Of a DNA stretch of 25,871 nucleotides, positions 3,929-15,990 are shown piece by piece; positions within the stretch are counted from its first letter, which is position 1, and each line of letters opens with the position of its first letter. Position numbers and translations under genes: made by a program. The DNA comes from a virus. Below the pieces are notes generated by a model, which saw only the letters and a program-made list of their open reading frames with translations, was not told the DNA's origin and searched no databases. The stretch is from IMG/VR virus record IMGVR_UViG_3300033141_003137. One strand, 5' to 3'.

Positions 3929-4096
3929 ATGAACAAGCCGATTGAGGAAATCTGCAAGACGTGCGAGTTCTGGGGCCGGTCATCGGGTGCGTTTGGGGTC
4001 TGTGTTGGCCCCGAACCGGCTGAGCGGGCGGCAGAGACGGACACCTGCAAGCACTGGAAGCTCAAGCAGGGGCTCGCTGATGTGGCAGCTCCTTGA
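3929..4096 (+). CDS. small Cys-containing protein (55 aa)
   Basis: MNKPIEEICKTCEFWGRSSGAFGVCVG...CKHWKLKQG. Start chosen at the RBS-preceded ATG. Confidence 0.45.
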   Translation: MNKPIEEICKTCEFWGRSSGAFGVCVGPEPAERAAETDTCKHWKLKQGLADVAAP

Positions 4097-4388
4097 AGAG
4101 GTCGCCGACTACCCTGACGGCGAGCCATTCCACCATCATCCTCCCCACCAGCGGGTCTACGGCTGGAAGGGCGAGCAGTGGCCGAAGCTGGTGATCACCC
4201 TCTACGGTGGTGATCCCTTGGCTGTGACGCATGATCCCGTCGTTGGTGAAGAGCCCTTCGTGGGGTTGAAGGTCTCGTGCTCGGCCCAGAAGTCACCGGA
4301 GCACTGGTGGCATGACGACTACCCCATCCCTGTCGAGCTGCTACCGGACCTTATCCAGCTCTTGGAGAGCTACCCCTCCGGTGTATGA
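4080..4388 (+). CDS. hypothetical protein (102 aa)
   Basis: MWQLLEEVADYPDGEPFHHHPPHQRVYGWKGEQWPKL... Overlaps the 3' end of the previous gene by 17 nt in another frame. Confidence 0.45.
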   Translation: MWQLLEEVADYPDGEPFHHHPPHQRVYGWKGEQWPKLVITLYGGDPLAVTHDPVVGEEPFVGLKVSCSAQKSPEHWWHDDYPIPVELLPDLIQLLESYPSGV

Positions 4389-5104
4389 TGACTGGCATGA
4401 TGGTCTTCAAGCAGATGGATGAGTGGACGACCCCCAAGCTGACGGGGTTCACTGGCATCGACCTGGGCAACTACGAGGTCGCCAAGGAACTGAGCCCTGT
4501 CATCCAGCAAGCGATGGTGGAGCGGCTGGACGTTCTCTGTTCCCAGGTTCATCTGAGCAACAACCAGATCAAGGTCTTGTCTGAGGACTACGGTGTTTCG
4601 TACGAGCAGGACCTCCCCGAGGGATTCGTAGAAGCGTTGCGGGTGGTGTCGGCGGGACCTCGCCCACCGTGGCCTGTCCCTGAGCCTCCGCCGGAGGTAG
4701 CGGCCCGGCTGGACAAGCTCGATGAGATTTTGTTCAGCCCACATGGGATGGGGTTGAAGGGCCGTGTGTTCATGAACGCGGTGACGTTTGCGGACGTTCG
4801 GAAGTGGCATCGCAATCAATTTGAGCCCATCTCTGAGGCGGCGTTGCTCAAGATGGGGTGGATGGGTAAGCTCTACCATCCGATGTTCGACTACCAGGGA
4901 GCTTACAAGGCAGGGATGACCTTGGAGACGGGGCGGCAAATCTGGCTCACGCGATTGGTGCCTCCGCACTTCCTCTTCATCGACAAGCTGGAGACGATGA
5001 CCCCGTTCCCTCGGGCGGTGGCTCCGTCTGACGACGAGCTGATCCCCTTGCAGGACGACTGTGTGGCGAAACCGATCCCGATCCCCCAGGAGTTGGAGTC
5101 ATGA
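4385..5104 (+). CDS. hypothetical protein (about 235 aa; start at 4385, 4388 or 4397)
   Basis: Long coding-like ORF. CGGTGTA at 4379-4385 lies 11 nt before ATG 4397. Confidence 0.55.
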   Translation: MMTGMMVFKQMDEWTTPKLTGFTGIDLGNYEVAKELSPVIQQAMVERLDVLCSQVHLSNNQIKVLSEDYGVSYEQDLPEGFVEALRVVSAGPRPPWPVPEPPPEVAARLDKLDEILFSPHGMGLKGRVFMNAVTFADVRKWHRNQFEPISEAALLKMGWMGKLYHPMFDYQGAYKAGMTLETGRQIWLTRLVPPHFLFIDKLETMTPFPRAVAPSDDELIPLQDDCVAKPIPIPQELES

Positions 5105-5859
5105 AGCGACGAGACATGTTGAAGGGCGTGGCAGTGGCCGCTGCGGGTACGTTCATCAGCCTTCGAGCTACCAAGGGTGAGGCCAAGACGGTCCAGACCC
5201 TGACGAGCGAGACGTACAGCGGTGAGACCCGTCGGATGAAGGTCGAGCTACACGTCTACCCGGACAAGGACGGCAAGTTCAACGGTCGGTTCCAAGAGCT
5301 GGTGGAGGACTGGTGGCAGCGCAACGATGAGCACTTCCGACCCGTCGAGGCCATCGCCTTCGAGCCCTTGATGGAGGACGGTGAGCAGTGGCTCGTTCAC
5401 TCGGCGTGGAAGTCCGTCTCGAAGGACAACCTCTCGACGCTCTACACCGAGGGTCGGAACATCTTCCGCGAGCACCGGTGGAGTGTCATCGACCGAGCGG
5501 TCTACCTCCGTGAGATGGGCTACTGGCGGCAGGAGTACGGGCCGCAGTTCAAGGGGATGCTCGATGGTGGCGGCATGTCGCCCGGCACCGCTCACTGGCG
5601 CATGTTTCGTCGGGTGGTCCGCAAGAGGCTTCACAAGGTGGTGGTTCGGTTCGAGGCGGTCTCGTTGGCGGACATCGAGCGCTACTCAGATGGTGAATAC
5701 GGCCAGCTGGAGCTGGAGGCTCTGGTGTGGGAGGACCTCCGCAAGGAAGGCAAGCTCACCCCTCGGACCTACTTCGAGCAGCAGAATGAGCGATTCGACC
5801 GGCTGGGCCAGCTGGAGGTTGAGGCTCTTGAGAGTTCTTCGATGACGCCGTCGGTGTGA
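5101..5859 (+). CDS. Tat-signal (twin-arginine) exported protein
   Basis: N-terminus MKRRDMLKGVAVAAAGTFISLRA has an RRxxLK motif followed by a hydrophobic stretch. ATGA overlap with the upstream gene. Confidence 0.55.
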   Translation: MKRRDMLKGVAVAAAGTFISLRATKGEAKTVQTLTSETYSGETRRMKVELHVYPDKDGKFNGRFQELVEDWWQRNDEHFRPVEAIAFEPLMEDGEQWLVHSAWKSVSKDNLSTLYTEGRNIFREHRWSVIDRAVYLREMGYWRQEYGPQFKGMLDGGGMSPGTAHWRMFRRVVRKRLHKVVVRFEAVSLADIERYSDGEYGQLELEALVWEDLRKEGKLTPRTYFEQQNERFDRLGQLEVEALESSSMTPSV

Positions 5860-6059
5860 TGAAGCGGGGATTCCAACCGATTGGAGAGCGGCCTGGAGGC
5901 AAGCGAGTCCTCAAGAAGGTCCAGCTCTCCGACGGTCGTGAGATCGAGTTTGAGGTCTTCGTCATCGATCAGCCGCCCCCTGCCGAGGTGGAGACTGGAG
6001 TCCAGCCGAAGTGTTCCCCCGGCAGCTTCGGTCACGTACCTCGGCGGGGGTCTAGCTAG
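5859..6059 (+). CDS. small hypothetical protein (66 aa)
   Basis: MKRGFQPIGERPGGKRVLKKVQLSDGREIEFEVFVIDQPP. TGATG overlap with the upstream stop. Confidence 0.35.
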   Translation: MKRGFQPIGERPGGKRVLKKVQLSDGREIEFEVFVIDQPPPAEVETGVQPKCSPGSFGHVPRRGSS

Positions 6060-6276
6060 CTTCCTGGTCGATCATCTGGTCGACCAGGAGGTATGCCCGC
6101 TTTGGCCCAATGGTGGGCTTCAGCTCGTCGAAGGTACCCATCAGCTCGTGGGAGCGCTCTTCGATGATGGCCCAGCAGGAGTCACACCAGGGGCCAAGGG
6201 GCTGCTGGTAGTCACCGCGGGTGTAGATCCGTTCGGGACCTGAGTTGGGGCAACCTGCTTGCTGGCACTTCGTCAT
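6052..6276 (-). CDS. Cys-rich zinc-finger small protein (74 aa)
   Basis: MTKCQQAGCPNSGPERIYTRGDYQQPLGPWCDSCWAIIEE. Confidence 0.5.
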   Translation of the reverse strand: MTKCQQAGCPNSGPERIYTRGDYQQPLGPWCDSCWAIIEERSHELMGTFDELKPTIGPKRAYLLVDQMIDQEAS

Positions 6277-6320
6277 GTGGCTAGGAGGGCGACTGTAGCA
6301 GCGACAGTGATGGGGATCAC

Positions 6321-6746
6321 CTACCGTGTACCGACGAACGACTTCATGACCTTGAGCAGTGGGTTGGCCACTTCCATCCCGTCCATGGTCTCGTTGAACT
6401 TGAGGTCCTTTTCCATGTGTCCCCGCATGGGGTGGTCGTAGCGGACTTCACCTTCGAGGGTTTCGCCTCGCCAAGACAGCTCGACTCGTAGCACCCATTC
6501 GAGGTCCGCGGCGTCGGTGCCGTTGACGATGATGTGGGGGGCGTTACCACCTTCGACGTTTTGGATGGTGGTGCGTCCTGGGAAGCGGTTGACCATCTCG
6601 GTCAGGGCTGTGAGGATGTCCCTCGCCCAGCCGACCTTGATCTCCCAGATGGTCATGTGCTGGAGGTTGAGGCTCCGACCGCCGAGGACGACCTCGAAGG
6701 CTTCCTTGCTGTGGCCTTGGCGAGCCAGCTCTGCTGCGTCCCTCAT
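6321..6746 (-). CDS. hypothetical protein (141 aa)
   Basis: Coding-like ORF inside the minus-strand block 6052-7482. Confidence 0.5.
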   Translation of the reverse strand: MRDAAELARQGHSKEAFEVVLGGRSLNLQHMTIWEIKVGWARDILTALTEMVNRFPGRTTIQNVEGGNAPHIIVNGTDAADLEWVLRVELSWRGETLEGEVRYDHPMRGHMEKDLKFNETMDGMEVANPLLKVMKSFVGTR

Positions 6747-6769
6747 ATCGGTGGTGACCTACAAGAAGA

Positions 6770-7039
6770 CTACCTGGGCCGAGGCCCCTCTTTGACCCTG
6801 GCAACGACACCGCCTTCTCGGGCAGCGTTGTAGGCGTAATCGTACTGGCTGTTGGGGTCGGAGACCCTCTCGATAGAGCCAAACTCCTGACGAAGGTGGG
6901 TCTCCAAGTCCTCTCGGGTTGAGAACCATCTGCGAGCGCCCCAGCCGAAGTGGGCACAGAGCTGCTCTTTACGGGGCTGGGGCTGCTCCAGGGGGCCACC
7001 CAAGATCATGTCGTCGAAGAGACAGAGCTGCTGTGTCAT
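6770..7039 (-). CDS. hypothetical protein (89 aa)
   Basis: ATGA overlap with the upstream gene (7036-7039). Confidence 0.45.
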   Translation of the reverse strand: MTQQLCLFDDMILGGPLEQPQPRKEQLCAHFGWGARRWFSTREDLETHLRQEFGSIERVSDPNSQYDYAYNAAREGGVVARVKEGPRPR

Positions 7040-7482
7040 TGGGGCTTCCCATCGCCTTCCATCATCTTGTGGAGATGAGCTTCAGGGCCTTCTCCGTGGA
7101 TGACCTTGGCCTTACCCATGGCGGTCATGCAGGCAGCCATGGCATGCATCATGGTGACACCGGGATCAGGTTGGCTCCAACCCCCTGAGTTGCGCATTTC
7201 CAGGAGCAGGGCCTTGGGGTCCTTGTTGACCTTCTTGGCCACTTCGATTCGCTGGTCGGTCGTTTGGAAGTAGATCCTCATGGGTTTCTGGGCGGCCTTA
7301 GCGGCGTGGAGCATGTAGCGGAACCAGGAGCCGCAGCCCTTACACTCAAAGCCAATCCAGGTGTTGAAGACGGTGTTGCCTTGGTGTTCCTTGGAGGCGA
7401 TGAGGCGACCCTCCCCGCAGTCGTGCTCGCAGACGGCTGTGAAGAACTCGCGGATGTCTTTGAAGTCGATGGGATCGCTCAT
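7036..7482 (-). CDS. hypothetical Cys-containing protein (148 aa); first gene of the minus block
   Basis: MSDPIDFKDIREFFTAVCEHDCGEG... A class A motif (complement of 7493-7499) lies exactly 10 nt upstream. Confidence 0.55.
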   Translation of the reverse strand: MSDPIDFKDIREFFTAVCEHDCGEGRLIASKEHQGNTVFNTWIGFECKGCGSWFRYMLHAAKAAQKPMRIYFQTTDQRIEVAKKVNKDPKALLLEMRNSGGWSQPDPGVTMMHAMAACMTAMGKAKVIHGEGPEAHLHKMMEGDGKPQ

Positions 7483-7512
7483 GTGGTGTACCTACACCGG
7501 ATCACGTGATCC
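7483..7512. promoter_or_regulatory. Divergent control region: everted repeat GGTGTAccTACACC (7485-7498) overlapping the 14-bp perfect palindrome GGATCACGTGATCC (7499-7512)
   Basis: Seen directly in the sequence. The TACACCG half serves minus gene 7482 at N10. Confidence 0.55.
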
Positions 7513-7535
7513 TTTGATGCCGCCTGCAAATCAAG

Positions 7536-8297
7536 ATGGCCTACTCCTACGACAGACGAGCGTCCGCGATGCTCAGCCCCGAGTACCTGGCCAAGCTCAT
7601 TTCGAAGCTCGACCCGATGCTGGTGGCCGACGCCCCCATGAGGCTTGAGCGGCTCCGAAAGGACCTGGCCAGCGAGGCGTTGCCTCCTTTCCCCATCGCG
7701 GGGCTAGAGGACTACCTACGGGATTGGCGCGTTGGTGAAGACGAGATTGAGCACGTCCTCAGCATCAAGCTCCGAGCCCCTCGGAAGAAGCGACAGACCA
7801 GGACCTTCTCGGACGCCTACATGGCAATGGGAAAGTTGATGGGGGTTTCGATCATCTTCGACGGGCGGCTCATGCACGAGGATTCTGCCCCCGCTGCTGT
7901 CGAGGCGTGGGCCAAGGGGTTCCGTAAGGTGAAGCCCAAGGCCAAAGCTCTTTTTGCACAGCTGGTCAAGAAGGTTGAGCTGCAACGTCCCTATGGGTCT
8001 GAAGACGCCATGTGGAAGCACAGCGATGTGATGGCCCTCTCGGTCAAGGCTTCGCCCCCAACGCCGGTCTCCGCGGCTCGATCAATCACCCATGAGCTGG
8101 GGCACGCGGTCGAGGAAGCCCGAAACGTCAACCTCATGATCGCACCGTGGGGGGAGCCTCCCTTCATCACGGACTACGCCGAGTACAAGCCGCACGTCGA
8201 GGACTTCGCTGAGAGCTTCCGGGTGTTCATCGAGCGTCCCAGCGAGCTACGAAAAGTGGCTCCGGCCAAGTACGCAGCTCTGCGAACGATTGTCTGA
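7536..8297 (+). CDS. putative zinc metallopeptidase (HExxH)
   Basis: SITHELGHAVEE with acidic residues downstream. 253 aa. Confidence 0.45.
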   Translation: MAYSYDRRASAMLSPEYLAKLISKLDPMLVADAPMRLERLRKDLASEALPPFPIAGLEDYLRDWRVGEDEIEHVLSIKLRAPRKKRQTRTFSDAYMAMGKLMGVSIIFDGRLMHEDSAPAAVEAWAKGFRKVKPKAKALFAQLVKKVELQRPYGSEDAMWKHSDVMALSVKASPPTPVSAARSITHELGHAVEEARNVNLMIAPWGEPPFITDYAEYKPHVEDFAESFRVFIERPSELRKVAPAKYAALRTIV

Positions 8298-10527: not shown

Positions 10528-11142
10528 TTACACCGCTGCTGCGGCTTCCTTGGCGGCTTTGGCATTGACCTTGGCCCGCTTGATGTGGTTGAGGATGCCC
10601 TCACCGATGTCTCGTTGGTGGAGGTTGTCGGTCAGGTAGACTTCGAGGGCCAGGATGGCGTGTGCCATGACTCGGATCTGCTCGGCCTGGCTGAGGGCCT
10701 GGATAGCCGTTCGACCTCCGCACCCGAAGCTGACATCGGTGGAGATCTTCATGGCCTTCAGGACGGGGGTGCCCACGTGGAAACCCTTGTCCATGGGCTT
10801 GGTTCGGCTGAGCTTGATGCCTTCCTTCACGGCCTTCTCCAGGTCCCCCTTCGGGGTGTAGAACTCGGTGATCACGTCCAGCTCACCGGAGACCTCGCGA
10901 CCGAAGCCGAGCTTTTGGACGAGCCGAATCTCGATGCCAAGGGCAGTGGGCTTGACTTCCGCAAAGGCGTTGCCGACCAAGCCGGCGACGACCTTCTCGG
11001 CCTCGTGCTTCATCTTGGGAGCGATGGTTTGCAGAAAGTAGAGGCTGAGGGTGTCCTTGAGAGCCTGGTTCACAGGGTCTACGGGGAGAGGCCCTGTCGC
11101 TTTGGGAGCAGCCTTCTTGGTGGTGCGCTTCTTGGTAGCCAT
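10528..11142 (-). CDS. hypothetical protein with Lys/Ala-rich basic N- and C-terminal tails (204 aa); possible nucleic-acid-binding
   Basis: MATKKRTTKKAAPKA...KRAKVNAKAAKEAAAAV. AGGAGAA RBS 9 nt upstream. Start moved to 11142 from the track start. Confidence 0.55.
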   Translation of the reverse strand: MATKKRTTKKAAPKATGPLPVDPVNQALKDTLSLYFLQTIAPKMKHEAEKVVAGLVGNAFAEVKPTALGIEIRLVQKLGFGREVSGELDVITEFYTPKGDLEKAVKEGIKLSRTKPMDKGFHVGTPVLKAMKISTDVSFGCGGRTAIQALSQAEQIRVMAHAILALEVYLTDNLHQRDIGEGILNHIKRAKVNAKAAKEAAAAV

Positions 11143-11175
11143 GATCTCGGTTCTCCTGGTGGGGGCGTCAGGGAC

Positions 11176-11276
11176 CCGAAGCTGCCGACCTCCTAGCGTC
11201 GTTTCCGGAACGACAGAACCACCTCTGGTAGCGACCCTTTGGTGAGGAGAGAGAAGCTCTCGCATCGGCAGCTTCG
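11176..11276 (-). promoter_or_regulatory. Structured 5' leader of 10528..11142: 13-bp perfect inverted repeat CCGAAGCTGCCGA / TCGGCAGCTTCGG separated by 73 nt, with an inner hairpin GTCGTTtccggaAACGAC
   Basis: Seen directly. Lies between the class B element (11303-11336) and the RBS. Confidence 0.5.
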
Positions 11277-11302
11277 GACCTCCGACGATCCGTTGCTCTG
11301 AC

Positions 11303-11336
11303 CCCACTACGAGCTGGAGCCGAAGTTGTTGAGCCC
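11303..11336 (-). promoter_or_regulatory. Class B element (minus sense CTCAACAACttcggctccagCTCGTAGTGG); the only copy with a long (about 150-nt) leader
   Basis: Matches the 30-nt consensus. Confidence 0.5.
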
Positions 11337-11369
11337 CTGATGATCAATTGTTGGCGGAGCCCAGGAGCG

Positions 11370-11669
11370 CTACCGACCAGGCGGCTTCTTCGGCAGGGGA
11401 CCGAAGTCCAGCAGGCCATCCTTCTGGCCAGGGTCTCGGCGCTTGACCTTGACGACCTCCCTCGGCGGCAGCTCCTTGTTCTCCAGCCGATGTTTGAGGA
11501 AGAGGGCCTCGACCCAGGCCCGTTGCTTCTTGCTCAGCTCGATGATCTTGCCGTTGATGAGGTCGTCGTACATGGCCTGGAAGGCCCGCTTCTCGCTCCG
11601 GCTGAGGGCCAGGGGAGACAGCGTCAGGAGCGCCCGAATCATCTGGAGTCCACTGCGCTTCTTGATCAC
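11370..11669 (-). CDS. hypothetical protein (about 100 aa; GTG start predicted by class A N10 rule; alternative ATG at 11642)
   Basis: Minus sense CGGTGTAtggtcactccGTGATCAAGAAG... The frame continues as MIRALLTLSPLALSRSEKRAFQAMYDDL. Confidence 0.45.
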   Translation of the reverse strand: MIKKRSGLQMIRALLTLSPLALSRSEKRAFQAMYDDLINGKIIELSKKQRAWVEALFLKHRLENKELPPREVVKVKRRDPGQKDGLLDFGPLPKKPPGR

Positions 11670-11690
11670 GGAGTGACCATACACCGGTCG

Positions 11691-11712
11691 AGGATCTTCT
11701 TGTGAAGATCCT
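11691..11712. promoter_or_regulatory. Perfect hairpin/palindrome AGGATCTTC-ttgt-GAAGATCCT between divergent genes; contains ATCTTCTTGT, 17 nt before ATG 11721
   Basis: Seen directly. The same ATCTTCTTGT-N17-ATG arrangement recurs at 21822-21848. Confidence 0.55.
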
Positions 11713-11720
11713 GGGGCACC

Positions 11721-12158
11721 ATGCTGAAGATCGCCAGCCCTCAAGAGCTACAAGCCGAGCTGAAGTCCATCATCGCCTTTGTTCACGCTTCTGAGAAGCC
11801 CGACCGCCAGGTGGTTGCGAGCAAGCTCCGGGGCCTCGCTGACCGCCTAGCTATTGAGAAGTTGGCTGGCCAGGACACGATGGCCAAGGATGTCGTGGAG
11901 TTCCTCGGTCAGATTGAGAATGCCATGAAGCGGGGAACGCTCCCGGCGAAGTGGCGTATCTGGCCCGAGTGGACAATGGGCAACTCCGCTGTCCAAATCA
12001 ACGTGACGGTCGATGAAAGCCATCAGTGGGAAGTGACCTCGAAAGGCTTGGGGGTCGGCAACGACCGTGGGACGGACCTTCGCAAGCTCAAGGCATGGTT
12101 CTGGGACGTTTTCGAGATTGGGGGCGACCGGGAGCTGAACTGGGAGCGGGAGCGATAA
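11721..12158 (+). CDS. hypothetical protein; N-terminal 45 aa paralogous to the 21042..21821 product
   Basis: MLKIASPQELQAELKSIIAFVHASEKPDRQVVASKLRGLADRLA aligns with MRKIASPQDLQADLQDLLAYSQSAEPSRAKLASDLRDLADRVA, also at the nucleotide level. Confidence 0.55.
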   Translation: MLKIASPQELQAELKSIIAFVHASEKPDRQVVASKLRGLADRLAIEKLAGQDTMAKDVVEFLGQIENAMKRGTLPAKWRIWPEWTMGNSAVQINVTVDESHQWEVTSKGLGVGNDRGTDLRKLKAWFWDVFEIGGDRELNWERER

Positions 12159-12169
12159 GGGCCGCTAGT

Positions 12170-12373
12170 CTACGCGAGGACGCTCGGGTTGTCGGCCGTG
12201 GTCACGTCCAGGTGCTGGCCTCGCTTCTGGATCTTGATGAAGCCCGACGAGGTGGCGATGTCGAAGTCGTCGAGGTTGCGTCGGCCTGACCTGAACAGCT
12301 CGTCCTTGACGAACTTGGGGTCCTCGGTGGCGAGGCACTCGCTGGTCTTGCGGTTGAAGAAGACGGTGATCAT
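12170..12373 (-). CDS. small hypothetical protein (67 aa)
   Basis: TGATG overlap with the HNH gene's stop. Confidence 0.4.
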   Translation of the reverse strand: MITVFFNRKTSECLATEDPKFVKDELFRSGRRNLDDFDIATSSGFIKIQKRGQHLDVTTADNPSVLA

Positions 12374-12771
12374 CAGCTAGCTCCTGGCTCGAATCGTTGC
12401 TTCAGCTTCTCGTAGAGGAAGCGGGCGTAGTTGTCAGAGAGGCCCTTGAACCGACCTCGCCCTTTGATCGCCATGTCCACCCGGTTGTCCACGTGATTTC
12501 CGCGTAGAAGGTGAGCGGGATTGGCACAAGCAGGGTTGTCGCAGAGGTGGAGGATGGTGTCGGACGGCTTCAGCTTCTTGCCGTACACCACCTCGTAGAT
12601 GACACGGTGGACCTTCTGGACTTTCCCGTTGGCCTGCATGGCACCGTAGCCCCTCTTGTCCTTCGCGAACTTCCAGAGCCAGCACTCCCCATCGGGGACA
12701 TCCCACTCAAGGCCCAACCAGAGTCGCACTTCGAGGGGCACTTTGAACCGAGGCATAAGAAAGTTTATCAT
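12373..12771 (-). CDS. HNH homing endonuclease (HNH_3 type)
   Basis: MINFLMPRFKV...WLWKFAKDKRGYG...HRVIYEVVYGK...HLCDNPACANPAHLLRGNHVDN. The start region is locally AT-rich. The track ORF's extension to 13110 is a shadow. Confidence 0.75.
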   Translation of the reverse strand: MINFLMPRFKVPLEVRLWLGLEWDVPDGECWLWKFAKDKRGYGAMQANGKVQKVHRVIYEVVYGKKLKPSDTILHLCDNPACANPAHLLRGNHVDNRVDMAIKGRGRFKGLSDNYARFLYEKLKQRFEPGAS

Positions 12772-12861
12772 GAATCCAAACTTTCTTGTGGTCCAGGGGG
12801 TCACGGTGTCGAGAGGTCGCGGAGTTAGGGCCTGGCACGCTCCATGCTCTAGCTGCTGGTC

Positions 12862-13104
12862 ATGCTCGTCAAGTTCTCCTGCGGTTGCATCGGGTTCCTC
12901 GGCCTCTCGGACAAGGCGCTCGTCGTCTCGCCCTGCGACACGGATCGGTACGACCCGGACATCCACCTCTTCTGGCGGGACCTCTCGGACAAGACCCACG
13001 AGGTCCTCGACCCCGAGAAGGGGCAGAAGCTCATGGACGAGGTCGGTGCCTTGGTGTTCGACGGTCAACGCTACCGGGAGATCCGCTCCCTGTTGAGGCT
13101 CTAG
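12862..13104 (+). CDS. small hypothetical protein (80 aa)
   Basis: MLVKFSCGCIGFLGLSDKALVVSPCDTDRYDPD... It shares a CTAG stop overlap with the convergent minus gene at 13101-13104. Confidence 0.4.
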   Translation: MLVKFSCGCIGFLGLSDKALVVSPCDTDRYDPDIHLFWRDLSDKTHEVLDPEKGQKLMDEVGALVFDGQRYREIRSLLRL

Positions 13105-13340
13105 TTCCAAGCCCCTGCGTCCATCAGGGGTTGGGTGTCGAAGCGGCCTGGGTGCTTCTCGCGGATCTTCATGGCGTGAGAGCCCAGGGCCTTCTCCAGG
13201 TCGCAGATGTACCGCTCGGAGGTTCCGATGTATTTGTTGGTCGAGACGACGTTGAGCTTGTGCAGCCAGACGGAGACGGTTTCCTCACCGTCGATGGCTG
13301 TGGCCAGCCGGCGAAGGGCGTTGGCGAGCTTGCTTCTCAT
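13101..13340 (-). CDS. small hypothetical protein (79 aa)
   Basis: MRSKLANALRRLATAIDGEETVSVWLHKL... ATGA overlap with the PARG-like gene's stop. Confidence 0.4.
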   Translation of the reverse strand: MRSKLANALRRLATAIDGEETVSVWLHKLNVVSTNKYIGTSERYICDLEKALGSHAMKIREKHPGRFDTQPLMDAGAWN

Positions 13341-14116
13341 TGCTGGAATGCCTCTTGGAAGGGCCTGAAGGAAGGGCCGCCTCCGTAGATCGGGAAGACG
13401 ACCTTGTCGAAGATGCCACTGAAGTCGCTGTTCAGGTGGGCTGCGAAGATGCCAGCTACCTCGCGGGCGTTGTTGCCGAAGACCCCACAGCCCCAAGCTC
13501 CCAGGATGAGGATCTCGGTCCCGTGGTGAGCAGCAACATCCAGGATGCGTCGGGCTCGACCAGCCATGACTGCGTTAGCGTGGGAGTGCTCATTCCCTTC
13601 GAGGGCTCCCCTGTTCACGGCGGGGGAGGTGATGAAGGCGCCCTTGTAGGGCTGGTTCAGGAGGTGTCCGTGGTCGTCCCGGAAGACCCAGACCTCGGGT
13701 GAGTAGATGATGCCATCCGTGTAGAGCCCGGAGCGCTCAGCCCGGTTGACCTCGTAGAAGGGCGAGTCCTTCAGACCTCCGATGAGGGTCGAGGATCGAG
13801 CGATGCTCTCTTCCTGGGCGACCGTCCCTCGAAGGAACCCTCCGCCGGGGTTCTTGGCCGAGGCGAAGTTCAGGGCAGCGACTTTGCTGTTGGGGTCCTG
13901 GTGGTCTCGCAGTGCGGCCAGGGTCGACTGCTGAGTGACCTGGATCACAGACTCCAGGTACAGCTGGGGGAGGGGGTTGAGGGGCTCGTCTGGTGGGTGG
14001 TAGACCGCGCCCTGCTCAGGTGGCAGCTGGAGCAGCTTCCCCGAGGGGGTTCGGTACTGTCGAGACATGGTGGTTTGGACAGCTTCTTTGGCCATCCTGA
14101 TGAGTCGTTGGCTCAT
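13337..14116 (-). CDS. bacterial-type poly(ADP-ribose) glycohydrolase-like macrodomain protein (DUF2263/TIGR02452 family)
   Basis: Carries the PARG signature GGG-x7-QEE in the context ALNFASAKNPGGGFLRGTVAQEESIARSSTL. 259 aa. Confidence 0.7.
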   Translation of the reverse strand: MSQRLIRMAKEAVQTTMSRQYRTPSGKLLQLPPEQGAVYHPPDEPLNPLPQLYLESVIQVTQQSTLAALRDHQDPNSKVAALNFASAKNPGGGFLRGTVAQEESIARSSTLIGGLKDSPFYEVNRAERSGLYTDGIIYSPEVWVFRDDHGHLLNQPYKGAFITSPAVNRGALEGNEHSHANAVMAGRARRILDVAAHHGTEILILGAWGCGVFGNNAREVAGIFAAHLNSDFSGIFDKVVFPIYGGGPSFRPFQEAFQQ

Positions 14117-15234: not shown

Positions 15235-15990
15235 TCAGCTTCCCTGATCATCCTTATACACCGGCCAGCCGTTGAGCCTGTGCGCTTCATCGAGTGTGGC
15301 CTCAACAAAGGGACCGGCCTCGTCGATGAACTTGTGAGCCACGCTGCCGAAGCCCATTCCCTCTTCGGCCCACATCCCTTTAGCTCGAATGGCGACCTGC
15401 GCCATGGCGTTGTCGATCTCGGGAGGGCTCAGGTGTCTGAGCGCACAGGTCACCATCTCGATCTGGTCTTCCGAGACTTCGACCTTCGAGACCGCTACGA
15501 GGTTGGTCAAGACCTCTCTGACCGACTCGCGTGCTGCGGTGACGTGGCTTTCGCTCACGGGCTCGGGCTTGGGTCGCTTGCTGTCGAGCTGGAAGTCCGC
15601 CTCGATTCTCGGCATGAGCGGCCGAAGAGCTTCGGGGGCGGTCAGGTCCGGAGGGCCGATGAAGATGAGTCTCTGGAGGTGGCGGTTGTTGAGCCTGAGC
15701 TGATCGTTGTTGGTGCTGAGGTGTTCAACAATGTCGGGATCGCCAAACCAGTCGCCTGGGTTGCGAATGAAAACGAAAACAATCTCGTCCCTCGTGGGCA
15801 TGTGCTCAGGCAGGTCCTCGAAGGTCGCATCCTCGACGATCTTCACCCTGTCCTTCTTGGGGTCGAGCTTGGTCAAGAGCCCACTGACGAACTCGTCGGG
15901 CTCTGTGGTTGCGACGTAGAACATCGGAGTCAGGCATCTGATGTGGAAGAGGACGCCGAAGTCCTGATTGAACAGTTTGTTGAACGCCAT
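15235..15990 (-). CDS. hypothetical protein (251 aa)
   Basis: Coding-like ORF. The TACACCG half-site lies 9 nt upstream of its ATG. Confidence 0.5.
   Translation of the reverse strand: MAFNKLFNQDFGVLFHIRCLTPMFYVATTEPDEFVSGLLTKLDPKKDRVKIVEDATFEDLPEHMPTRDEIVFVFIRNPGDWFGDPDIVEHLSTNNDQLRLNNRHLQRLIFIGPPDLTAPEALRPLMPRIEADFQLDSKRPKPEPVSESHVTAARESVREVLTNLVAVSKVEVSEDQIEMVTCALRHLSPPEIDNAMAQVAIRAKGMWAEEGMGFGSVAHKFIDEAGPFVEATLDEAHRLNGWPVYKDDQGS

Follow-up and report, generated by a model that had tools for sequence, protein, structure and literature searches.

Two genes on a stretch of viral DNA of 25,871 nucleotides (IMG/VR virus record IMGVR_UViG_3300033141_003137; hereafter the window, to which all bare coordinates refer) encode proteins that begin with a related N-terminal module and are unrelated thereafter. 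Sequence comparisons indicate that these genes, termed A and B, are members of two subtypes of a large, undescribed protein family and not the products of a local duplication. By analogy with systems known from other phages, we tentatively propose that the module might serve as a shared docking or packaging tag that comes with its own promoter cassette. The two genes and their shared parts are located as follows.

11721..12158, + strand: gene A, 145 aa, cysteine-free, module followed by an orphan tail
11721..11852, + strand: module of gene A, residues 1-44, subtype A with SEKPDR loop
11693..11703, + strand: upstream box of gene A, GATCTTCTTGT, ending 17 nt before the ATG at 11721
11691..11712, + strand: perfect 9-bp hairpin with TTGT loop and the box inside, specific to gene A
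21042..21821, - strand: open reading frame (ORF) of gene B, 259 aa as called
21693..21821, - strand: module of gene B, residues 1-43, subtype B with PSR loop
21839..21849, - strand: upstream box of gene B, GATCTTCTTGT, ending 17 nt before the ATG at 21821

An N-terminal module shared by a large protein family

When a family profile built from the two window N-termini only was scored against 1.84 billion cluster representatives, 537 protein clusters were obtained at E<=1e-3 and 209 at E<=1e-10. Gene A itself, used as query in a word-indexed search, retrieved 18 other proteins, among them the full-length homologue P0003 (88%). Fifteen of the 18 align over the module only, covering 30-43% of the query at 64-93% identity, and in the cases of P0006 and P0007 the alignment to gene A continues beyond the module at lower identity. 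The module begins at residue 1 in 144 of the 158 proteins examined, and in the remaining ones the start codons look as if they had been called too far upstream. Behind the module, 154 tails of at least 30 aa fell into 117 BLASTP groups, 98 of which are singletons. No Pfam domain was found in the 50 longest module proteins, and one of 144 module proteins gave a PHROG match. The median protein length in the family is about 132 residues, with a median of about 88 for the tail. A preliminary description of this DNA had proposed a shared N-terminal tag on otherwise unrelated proteins, and this proposal is strongly supported by the 537 clusters, in which the module stands almost always at residue 1; the idea that no other genes carry the module is contradicted by the same count.

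Three subtypes can be distinguished by the loop sequence, PSR (89 proteins), SEKPDR (45) and HGHGPEGKPDR (21), and 3 proteins fall outside these; a single related locus (L016) can carry two of the subtypes. Several copies per element are found, namely two in the 26-kb window, four in a 228-kb viral contig and two each in the loci L013, L016 and L032. The family was not described in the literature found by searches for the motif, for huge-phage N-termini and for phage major vault proteins (MVPs), with supplementary tables lying outside these searches. Also, no relative of the module was detected among genomes sampled at one per prokaryote species.

AlphaFold2 modelling on an alignment of 144 rows predicted two helices (residues 7-23 and 29-46) joined by a short loop, with a pLDDT of 78.9. 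Over the 144 sequences M1, P7 and R29 are invariant, and K3, I4, A5, L10, E13, P27, A33, L36, L39, A40 and R42 are at least 90% conserved. Within the module, pS amounts to 0.65-0.70 and pN to 0.27-0.28; synonymous sites are near saturation and pN is low, which indicates that the peptide, and not the DNA, is conserved. Foldseek searches with the module against PDB and BFVD returned nothing at E<=1e-3, and a VIA-align wide search reached generic hairpins with Z<=5.9. A profile search of PDB sequences gave a single match at E=1, which was taken as chance, and Pfam searches at E<=10 with 20 modules yielded scattered weak matches only. Similarly, NCBIfam gave no match for the module, and the two sub-cutoff matches of P0002 to beta-lactamase models were considered chance. 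Complex prediction for two module copies, run without controls, gave scores of 0.26 and 0.29 versus a mark of 0.42. As modelled, the module is a generic hairpin fold without a match to a known family by sequence or by fold. The suggestion of a ligand-binding regulatory head found no support, since a predicted two-helix hairpin of 44 residues offers no pocket for a ligand.

The module commonly ends in ...ADRVA followed by G (52 proteins) or A (44 proteins) and then by positions rich in S, K, P or T. Motifs of the prohead-protease type ([SAG]-x-E) were considered as a possible cleavage site; they occur in 105 of 158 proteins, but within the loop and not at the end of the module, and this candidate was rejected.

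Cysteine accounts for 0.11% of the 16,035 tail residues and is missing altogether from 141 of 158 tails, as compared to 1.58% in the other ORFs of the window and 1.78% in 224 neighbouring ORFs of related loci. Lysine reaches 10.4% in the tails versus 4.7-5.3% in the comparison ORFs, which were picked by length and codon-position G+C and some of which may be false genes. A net positive charge was calculated for 70% of the tails, and a membrane-like segment was found in none of 156. The G+C content of genes A and B equals that of the window, so that base composition does not explain the cysteine and lysine signature. A lack of cysteine that is independent of the fold would be expected for proteins that leave the cytoplasm or cross a channel in unfolded form. 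Avoidance of cysteine regardless of fold therefore suggests a common destination outside the reducing cytoplasm, or passage through a channel, and for phage proteins it points to the virion.

Genes A and B, the upstream box and cassette behaviour

The proteins encoded by genes A and B are alike over residues 1-44 only, where 24 of 44 residues are identical (55%) and 34 of 44 are positives (E 1e-11), and the claim that they diverge completely behind the module holds. At the DNA level the two modules are 62% identical (pS 0.61, pN 0.31), and a blastn alignment is restricted to the first 42 nt (81%). To call them near-identical in protein and DNA, as had been done, is an overstatement. Also, the term duplicated is misleading, because genes A and B belong to different subtypes and the near saturation of their synonymous sites marks them as old paralogues and not as a recent copy. 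No third copy of the module was detected in the window by tblastn or with a broad hidden Markov model, the next best hits having E values of 0.31 and 1.0.

The perfect 9-bp hairpin noted earlier upstream of gene A is real as judged by folding. The sequence AGGATCTTC-TTGT-GAAGATCCT has a folding energy of -19 kcal/mol (z -4.3), and none of 200 shuffled sequences was equally stable. Such a hairpin is absent upstream of gene B, where the region shows no folding (z -0.33). For the tail of gene A (residues 48-145), P0003 is the single homologue in 5.8 billion proteins. Gene A gave no Pfam, PHROG or NCBIfam match, and in the ESM Atlas its tail gave no usable feature match and had neighbours only at TM<0.5.

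Gene B is shorter than its ORF. Over residues 1-131, gene B and protein P0159 (153 aa) are 100% identical. P0159 has a normal end, and the corresponding end can be read in the window in another frame only. This indicates a frame-shifting deletion after codon 131, at about 21429, and the parts of the region can be assigned as follows.

21429..21821, - strand: gene B proper, codons 1-131, with module, linker and beta-rich tail domain
21401..21433, - strand: remnant of the normal C-terminus of gene B and its stop codon, in another frame only; 10 of 11 residues as at the end of P0159, then stop
21068..21392, - strand: separate downstream small gene, swallowed by the 259-aa ORF; homologue of L030:6573-6899

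The downstream small gene, which has a signal-peptide-like N-terminus, shows 66% identity to L030:6573-6899 over 63 residues and then 60% over 42 residues in another frame, the shift lying near 21197. As read from these alignments, the 259-aa ORF is not one gene, but gene B running in frame into the next gene. The two disruptions of reading frame within about 250 nt (21042-21433, - strand) indicate either decay of the region or an assembly error. For P0159, AlphaFold2 predicted helices at residues 7-21 and 28-42, a low-confidence linker (43-48) and a confidently modelled tail domain made of a helix (49-58) and six strands (pLDDT 82); a Foldseek search with this model against PDB returned nothing at E<=1e-3.

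The claim that the 11-mer GATCTTCTTGT ends exactly 17 nt before the ATG of both genes was confirmed. These two are its only exact copies in the window, and with one mismatch or fewer there are three matches versus 0.36 expected, a number that none of 100 shuffles reached. We also scanned the window together with the related loci (185,809 nt, chosen for containing module genes). Of 35 distinct module genes, 23 have the box core, YYTYTT[G/A/T]T, at a distance of 13-25 nt upstream of the ATG (13 of them at exactly 17 nt), and several of the 12 module genes outside this definition have looser variants. A stricter 8-mer occurs 60 times; 30 of these occurrences are followed by an ORF, which in 20 cases is a module gene. 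Five other ORFs that follow the 8-mer and start with ATG are apparently real genes that lack the module, among them window gene 6321-6746. Since the box precedes a module-free gene, it is an independent regulatory element rather than a part of the module, to which it is coupled preferentially, not exclusively. Hairpins between box and ATG have z values below -1 at 10 of 23 loci without a fixed register; the hairpin often found there, GTGCCC...GGGCAC, differs from that of gene A. Two further features are relevant for the box.

6761..6768, - strand: box core, third copy (CTTCTTGT, then AGGT); module-free gene 6321-6746 has its ATG 14 nt downstream
11370..11642, - strand: divergent neighbour of gene A, 90 aa from its own ATG

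On the 5' side of the gene A box, ACACCGG is the reverse complement of the CCGGTGTA-type upstream motif of this divergent neighbour. A second class of upstream motif in the window, CCGGTGTAGGT (or TATGG), lies 7-40 nt before start codons and was found for genes 7036-7482, 15235-15990, 17139-19850, 3942-4388 and 11370-11642, and an element of the form CTCAACA...CTCGTAGTG belongs to the gene array at 22153-25708. A GTAG-type core is common to the box, the CCGGTGTAGGT class and the CTCAACA...CTCGTAGTG element, and the three may represent promoter classes for one unusual polymerase or sigma factor.

Module genes are placed differently around a conserved operon that contains an MVP-like gene (described below) in the window and in the related loci L030 and L024. 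In 45 pairs of proteins with homologous tails, the identities of module and tail mostly move together. In the gene B orthologue group the tails are 86-88% identical and the modules only 61-66%. The module is more conserved than the tail by more than 10 points in 16 of the 45 pairs, and the same tail family occurs under different module subtypes in P0014/P0067 and P0010/P0145. These sequences fit occasional exchange at the junction of module and tail on top of vertical descent.

Carrier elements and the MVP-like gene

The window has a G+C content of 61.5% and is tightly filled with small genes, few of which have recognizable domains (an MVP-like protein, a microbial-type poly-ADP-ribose glycohydrolase (PARG), two HNH-type endonucleases, a protein with an RNA polymerase alpha-CTD-like domain and ArdC). 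Gene B lies just downstream of the array headed by ArdC. Loci with module genes encode EF-Tu, an intein-containing ribonucleotide reductase, DNA polymerase III delta and delta' subunits, Cpn60, two sigma factors, a PhoH-PIN fusion, dCMP deaminase, thymidine kinase, TnpB and dihydroorotate dehydrogenase, and from this gene content the carrier elements look like huge phages. Module-bearing or related viral contigs in IMG/VR measure 228 and 318 kb. The contig of 228,619 bp (45% complete according to CheckV) has four divergent copies of the module, in genes situated among those for an RNA ligase, a Thg1-like protein, a kinase, a methylase and a helicase and among orphan genes. In locus L027, a 501-aa protein (L027:165-1670) matches a PHROG annotated as head maturation protease (E 2.6e-10) and, with E 3e-17, a larger PHROG of unknown function; about 4 kb downstream of its gene are a module gene and a gene that has the box but lacks the module.

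Other loci with module genes have further genes of interest. In L019 (2321-5680) a B12-dependent ribonucleotide reductase is split by an intein with an HNH endonuclease and is followed by genes for clamp-loader proteins like DNA polymerase III delta and delta' and by a Cpn60 fragment. Near the module gene of L021, a full EF-Tu, a ThiF/E1-like protein and a thymidine kinase are encoded (10963-12135, 5197-5775, 18139-20079), together with a PAS histidine kinase and its response regulator. The contig L018 carries, besides its module gene, five tandem DUF7666 paralogues (4188-7618), one of which also has a weak Imm5-like match, and this array adjoins IS200/TnpB genes, the PhoH-PIN fusion and two sigma-70-like genes.

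The MVP-like gene lies between genes A and B.

17139..19850, - strand: MVP-like gene, 903 aa, with Pfam matches MVP_shoulder (3e-24) and Vault_3 (1e-8)

A relative with 74% identity is L030:2910-5606, and relatives with 58-59% identity were found in IMG/VR contigs (L034-L036). The MVP-bearing IMG/VR contigs are three in number, one of them of 318 kb and 93% complete. GenBank genomes of uncultured phages of 462 and 735 kb (LR756500.1, LR756501.1) encode relatives with 37% identity, and the full-length gene is conserved among huge-phage-like contigs. In the abstract of a preprint from 2023, viral MVPs are reported from two gut phages and no others. What follows directly behind the MVP-like gene varies, with one gene in the window (16550-17101, - strand), two paralogues of this gene in L030 (1726-2856) and a module gene in L024/L025 (L024:1033-1413). 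Further downstream in the operon, the window encodes a microbial-type PARG (13337-14116, - strand; E 3e-34) next to an HNH endonuclease (12373-13110, - strand). Eukaryotic vaults carry a PARP, and a link through ADP-ribose is a possible lead.

Docking or packaging and competing explanations

A strictly N-terminal hairpin, a linker, more than 100 unrelated soluble domains, several copies per genome and a box of its own make up the anatomy of an address or docking tag. According to the proposal of a docking or packaging tag, each family member would be a self-contained cassette composed of the box, the N-terminal hairpin, a short flexible linker and a small soluble domain that varies freely. The promoter-like box, with the consensus [G/A]AT-YYTCTT-G/A-T about 17 nt before the ATG, might drive expression of the cassette. 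The conserved helix-loop-helix hairpin of 43-47 residues would bind one conserved partner, and in this way a changing repertoire of small proteins would be brought to the same place. That place would most likely be the virion, where the proteins could sit within the capsid, to be co-injected with the DNA, or on the outside of the particle. Box and 5' coding module together would provide about 150 bp of shared sequence, and recombination there may move or exchange cassettes.

Short shared tags that bind diverse cargo to a shell protein are found in several systems, such as the INT domain of vaults, the targeting peptides of encapsulins and the encapsulation peptides of microcompartments. However, no homology to these was found, genes for encapsulin or microcompartment shells were not seen, and the MVP-like gene and the module do not co-occur in four large genomes or contigs (G003, W01, W02 and G001). 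In phage P22, the helix-turn-helix coat-binding domain of the scaffolding protein, a short, amphipathic and basic alpha-hairpin, docks inside the procapsid and has been used for foreign cargo. In contrast to the module, this domain is located at the C-terminus and is part of one scaffolding protein only; it is not among the listed structural neighbours of the module, which for so small a fold is not evidence against a likeness.

The closest functional precedents, none of which appears to be homologous, are the capsid targeting sequence (CTS) of T4, the propeptides of giant phages and the PeSL cassettes. In T4, the internal proteins IPI-III and Alt are described as diverse, small and mostly basic proteins that have only a conserved N-terminal CTS in common (PMC3012670, PMC5694885). 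Module proteins resemble this account in that a tag stands at the extreme N-terminus of unrelated small phage proteins encoded by several genes per genome in variable regions. However, the T4 tag has 10-20 residues and is cut by the prohead protease, whereas the module has 43-47, is predicted to form two helices and shows no recognizable cleavage site. This comparison was made by description and not by sequence, and packaging of the module proteins is a proposal. For the giant phages phiKZ and SPN3US, long N-terminal propeptides of paralogous head proteins are thought to target the prohead (PMC5694885). There the mature parts are homologous (for example pfam12699), whereas in the module family the N-terminus alone is shared and no PHROG or Pfam links the members. 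PeSLs are promoter-early stem-loop cassettes proposed to mediate the shuffling of orphan genes in T4-type phages (PMC2839356; see also PMC4122927). As in the PeSLs so described, a conserved element of promoter type lies 5' of orphan genes in plastic regions; the G/C-rich stem-loop that often goes with it at variable position is strong at gene A, absent at gene B and has z below -1 at 10 of 23 loci. PeSLs, however, have sigma-70-like -35 and -10 boxes, of which none is detectable here, a different conserved box being present instead, and the conserved unit of the module genes runs 130 nt into the coding region. The defining features of these precedents, the cleaved form of 10-20 residues in the T4 tag and the sigma-70-like promoter in PeSLs, were not found.

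Several observations weigh against the docking or packaging proposal. A folded hairpin of 44 residues, as modelled, is longer and more structured than the T4 tag. No consistent protease motif was found at the end of the module. The module was not found by tblastn in collections of cultured phages or plasmids, and the four module genes of the 228-kb contig do not lie among recognizable structural genes. A search for terminase (PF17289, Terminase_6C) in the large viral contigs G001 and G003 gave no match, and the capsid-forming nature of the elements therefore rests on IMG/VR labels and gene content. For the head-protease lead in L027, no support came from Pfam or PDB sequences and no homologue was found in four large phage records. 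A promoter of the sigma-70 type was not detected around gene A (0 sites in 11300-12400), and the box also stands before genes that lack the module. Finally, the parallel identities in the 45 pairs point mainly to vertical descent, with some exchange only.

Instead of an address, the hairpin might be a cytoplasmic domain for protein-protein interaction, by which family members pair with each other or bind a hub of host or phage such as RNA polymerase, a protease or a chaperone, with neither packaging nor export involved. During infection the variable domains would act on this hub or be controlled by way of it. Alpha-hairpins of this size are common as dimerization or docking units, and the best structural neighbours of the module include the dimerization domains of GLD-1/Quaking, CENP-B and SIP (Z 5.0-5.9), although these are tied with many unrelated entries. 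Also, the neighbours of module genes are non-structural, and gene B follows the ArdC-headed array. Such a domain leaves the approximately 14-fold avoidance of cysteine and the enrichment of lysine across more than 100 unrelated tails unexplained, and no candidate hub was identified; we consider it unlikely. A small DNA-binding head that binds the box and causes family-wide repression, for example a ribbon-helix-helix-like one with KIAS as strand followed by two helices, appears improbable. The module resembles ribbon-helix-helix domains in size and order of elements, the box is linked to 23 of 35 module genes at a fixed distance, and at gene A it lies in a perfect palindrome. However, neither a ribbon-helix-helix nor another DNA-binding family was detected with 20 modules at E<=10 or in PDB sequences. 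With only five residues in front of the invariant P7 there is little room for a ribbon, and the model of the monomer shows residues 1-6 as coil. Gene B and most loci lack the palindrome, the box is also found at module-free genes, and we know of no precedent for hundreds of unrelated tails on one operator-binding head.

A further explanation, that the module is a leader peptide recognized and removed by a processing or export system as in precursors of bacteriocins or of ribosomally synthesized and post-translationally modified peptides, is very improbable. A conserved leader with a hypervariable remainder, several genes per genome, the small residue after ...ADRVA in 96 cases and a lack of cysteine that fits export would agree with it. 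However, the putative cores are not short peptides but folded domains, about 88 residues long at the median, and they lack the richness in Cys, Ser and Thr of lanthipeptide cores. Also, no match to Nif11, NHLP or another leader family was obtained, and neither a modification enzyme nor a peptidase-transporter was seen beside module genes. Least credible of all is that the shared 5' end acts only as a handle for recombination and expression of the DNA and encodes a functionless peptide. There is a precedent in the PeSLs, and the discordant identities of module and tail in the gene B group and the variable positions of the cassettes fit such a handle. Against it, the peptide is conserved despite the near saturation of synonymous sites, the DNA identity of 62% between A and B is below what efficient homologous exchange would need, and in the 228-kb contig the divergent copies differ in DNA composition and yet retain the helix pattern. 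The preliminary description had also considered that tagged proteins are cargo of a vault-like shell, in which case the hairpin would be the loading signal for a shell formed by the MVP-like protein (17139-19850). In support of this, genes A and B of the window lie less than 6 kb from the MVP-like gene, the same holds for module genes in L030, and in L024/L025 a module gene follows it after 90 nt in the same orientation. Yet module genes occur about once per 10-50 kb, a density at which neighbours this close are to be expected by chance, and the positions of module genes near the MVP-like gene differ between relatives. No module was detected at E<=1 in the three MVP-bearing IMG/VR contigs or in the phage genomes of 462 and 735 kb, and an MVP-like gene is lacking from the 228-kb contig (only 45% complete), which carries four modules. 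The failure of co-occurrence in large contigs and genomes leaves the link to vault-shell cargo unsupported, and with a cytoplasmic shell the lack of cysteine would be left unexplained; we regard the chance of such a loading signal as slim.

The docking or packaging proposal can be extended to a more doubtful statement, namely that a clade of huge phages uses one hairpin of 44 residues as a universal address label, on a promoter-bearing mobile cassette, in order to load a large and rapidly changing arsenal of small cysteine-free proteins for delivery into the next host. The shared compartment of this arsenal would be the virion or, with far lower probability, the phage's own MVP shell.

Most genes of huge phages are orphans without a clue to function, and the tag would pick out at least 537 clusters of small proteins from their sequence; the proteins of these clusters probably share a destination. 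The cysteine-free, lysine-rich signature over unrelated folds provides an independent prediction on where these proteins go. If the destination is the virion, the clusters would represent a catalogue of candidate proteins injected for host takeover or against host defence, and the tag, a much larger and structurally distinct counterpart of the capsid-targeting system of T4, could be used for the packaging of foreign cargo. Beyond the T4-type phages, the cassette of box and module would provide a second example of a way in which orphan genes may be shuffled in large phages.

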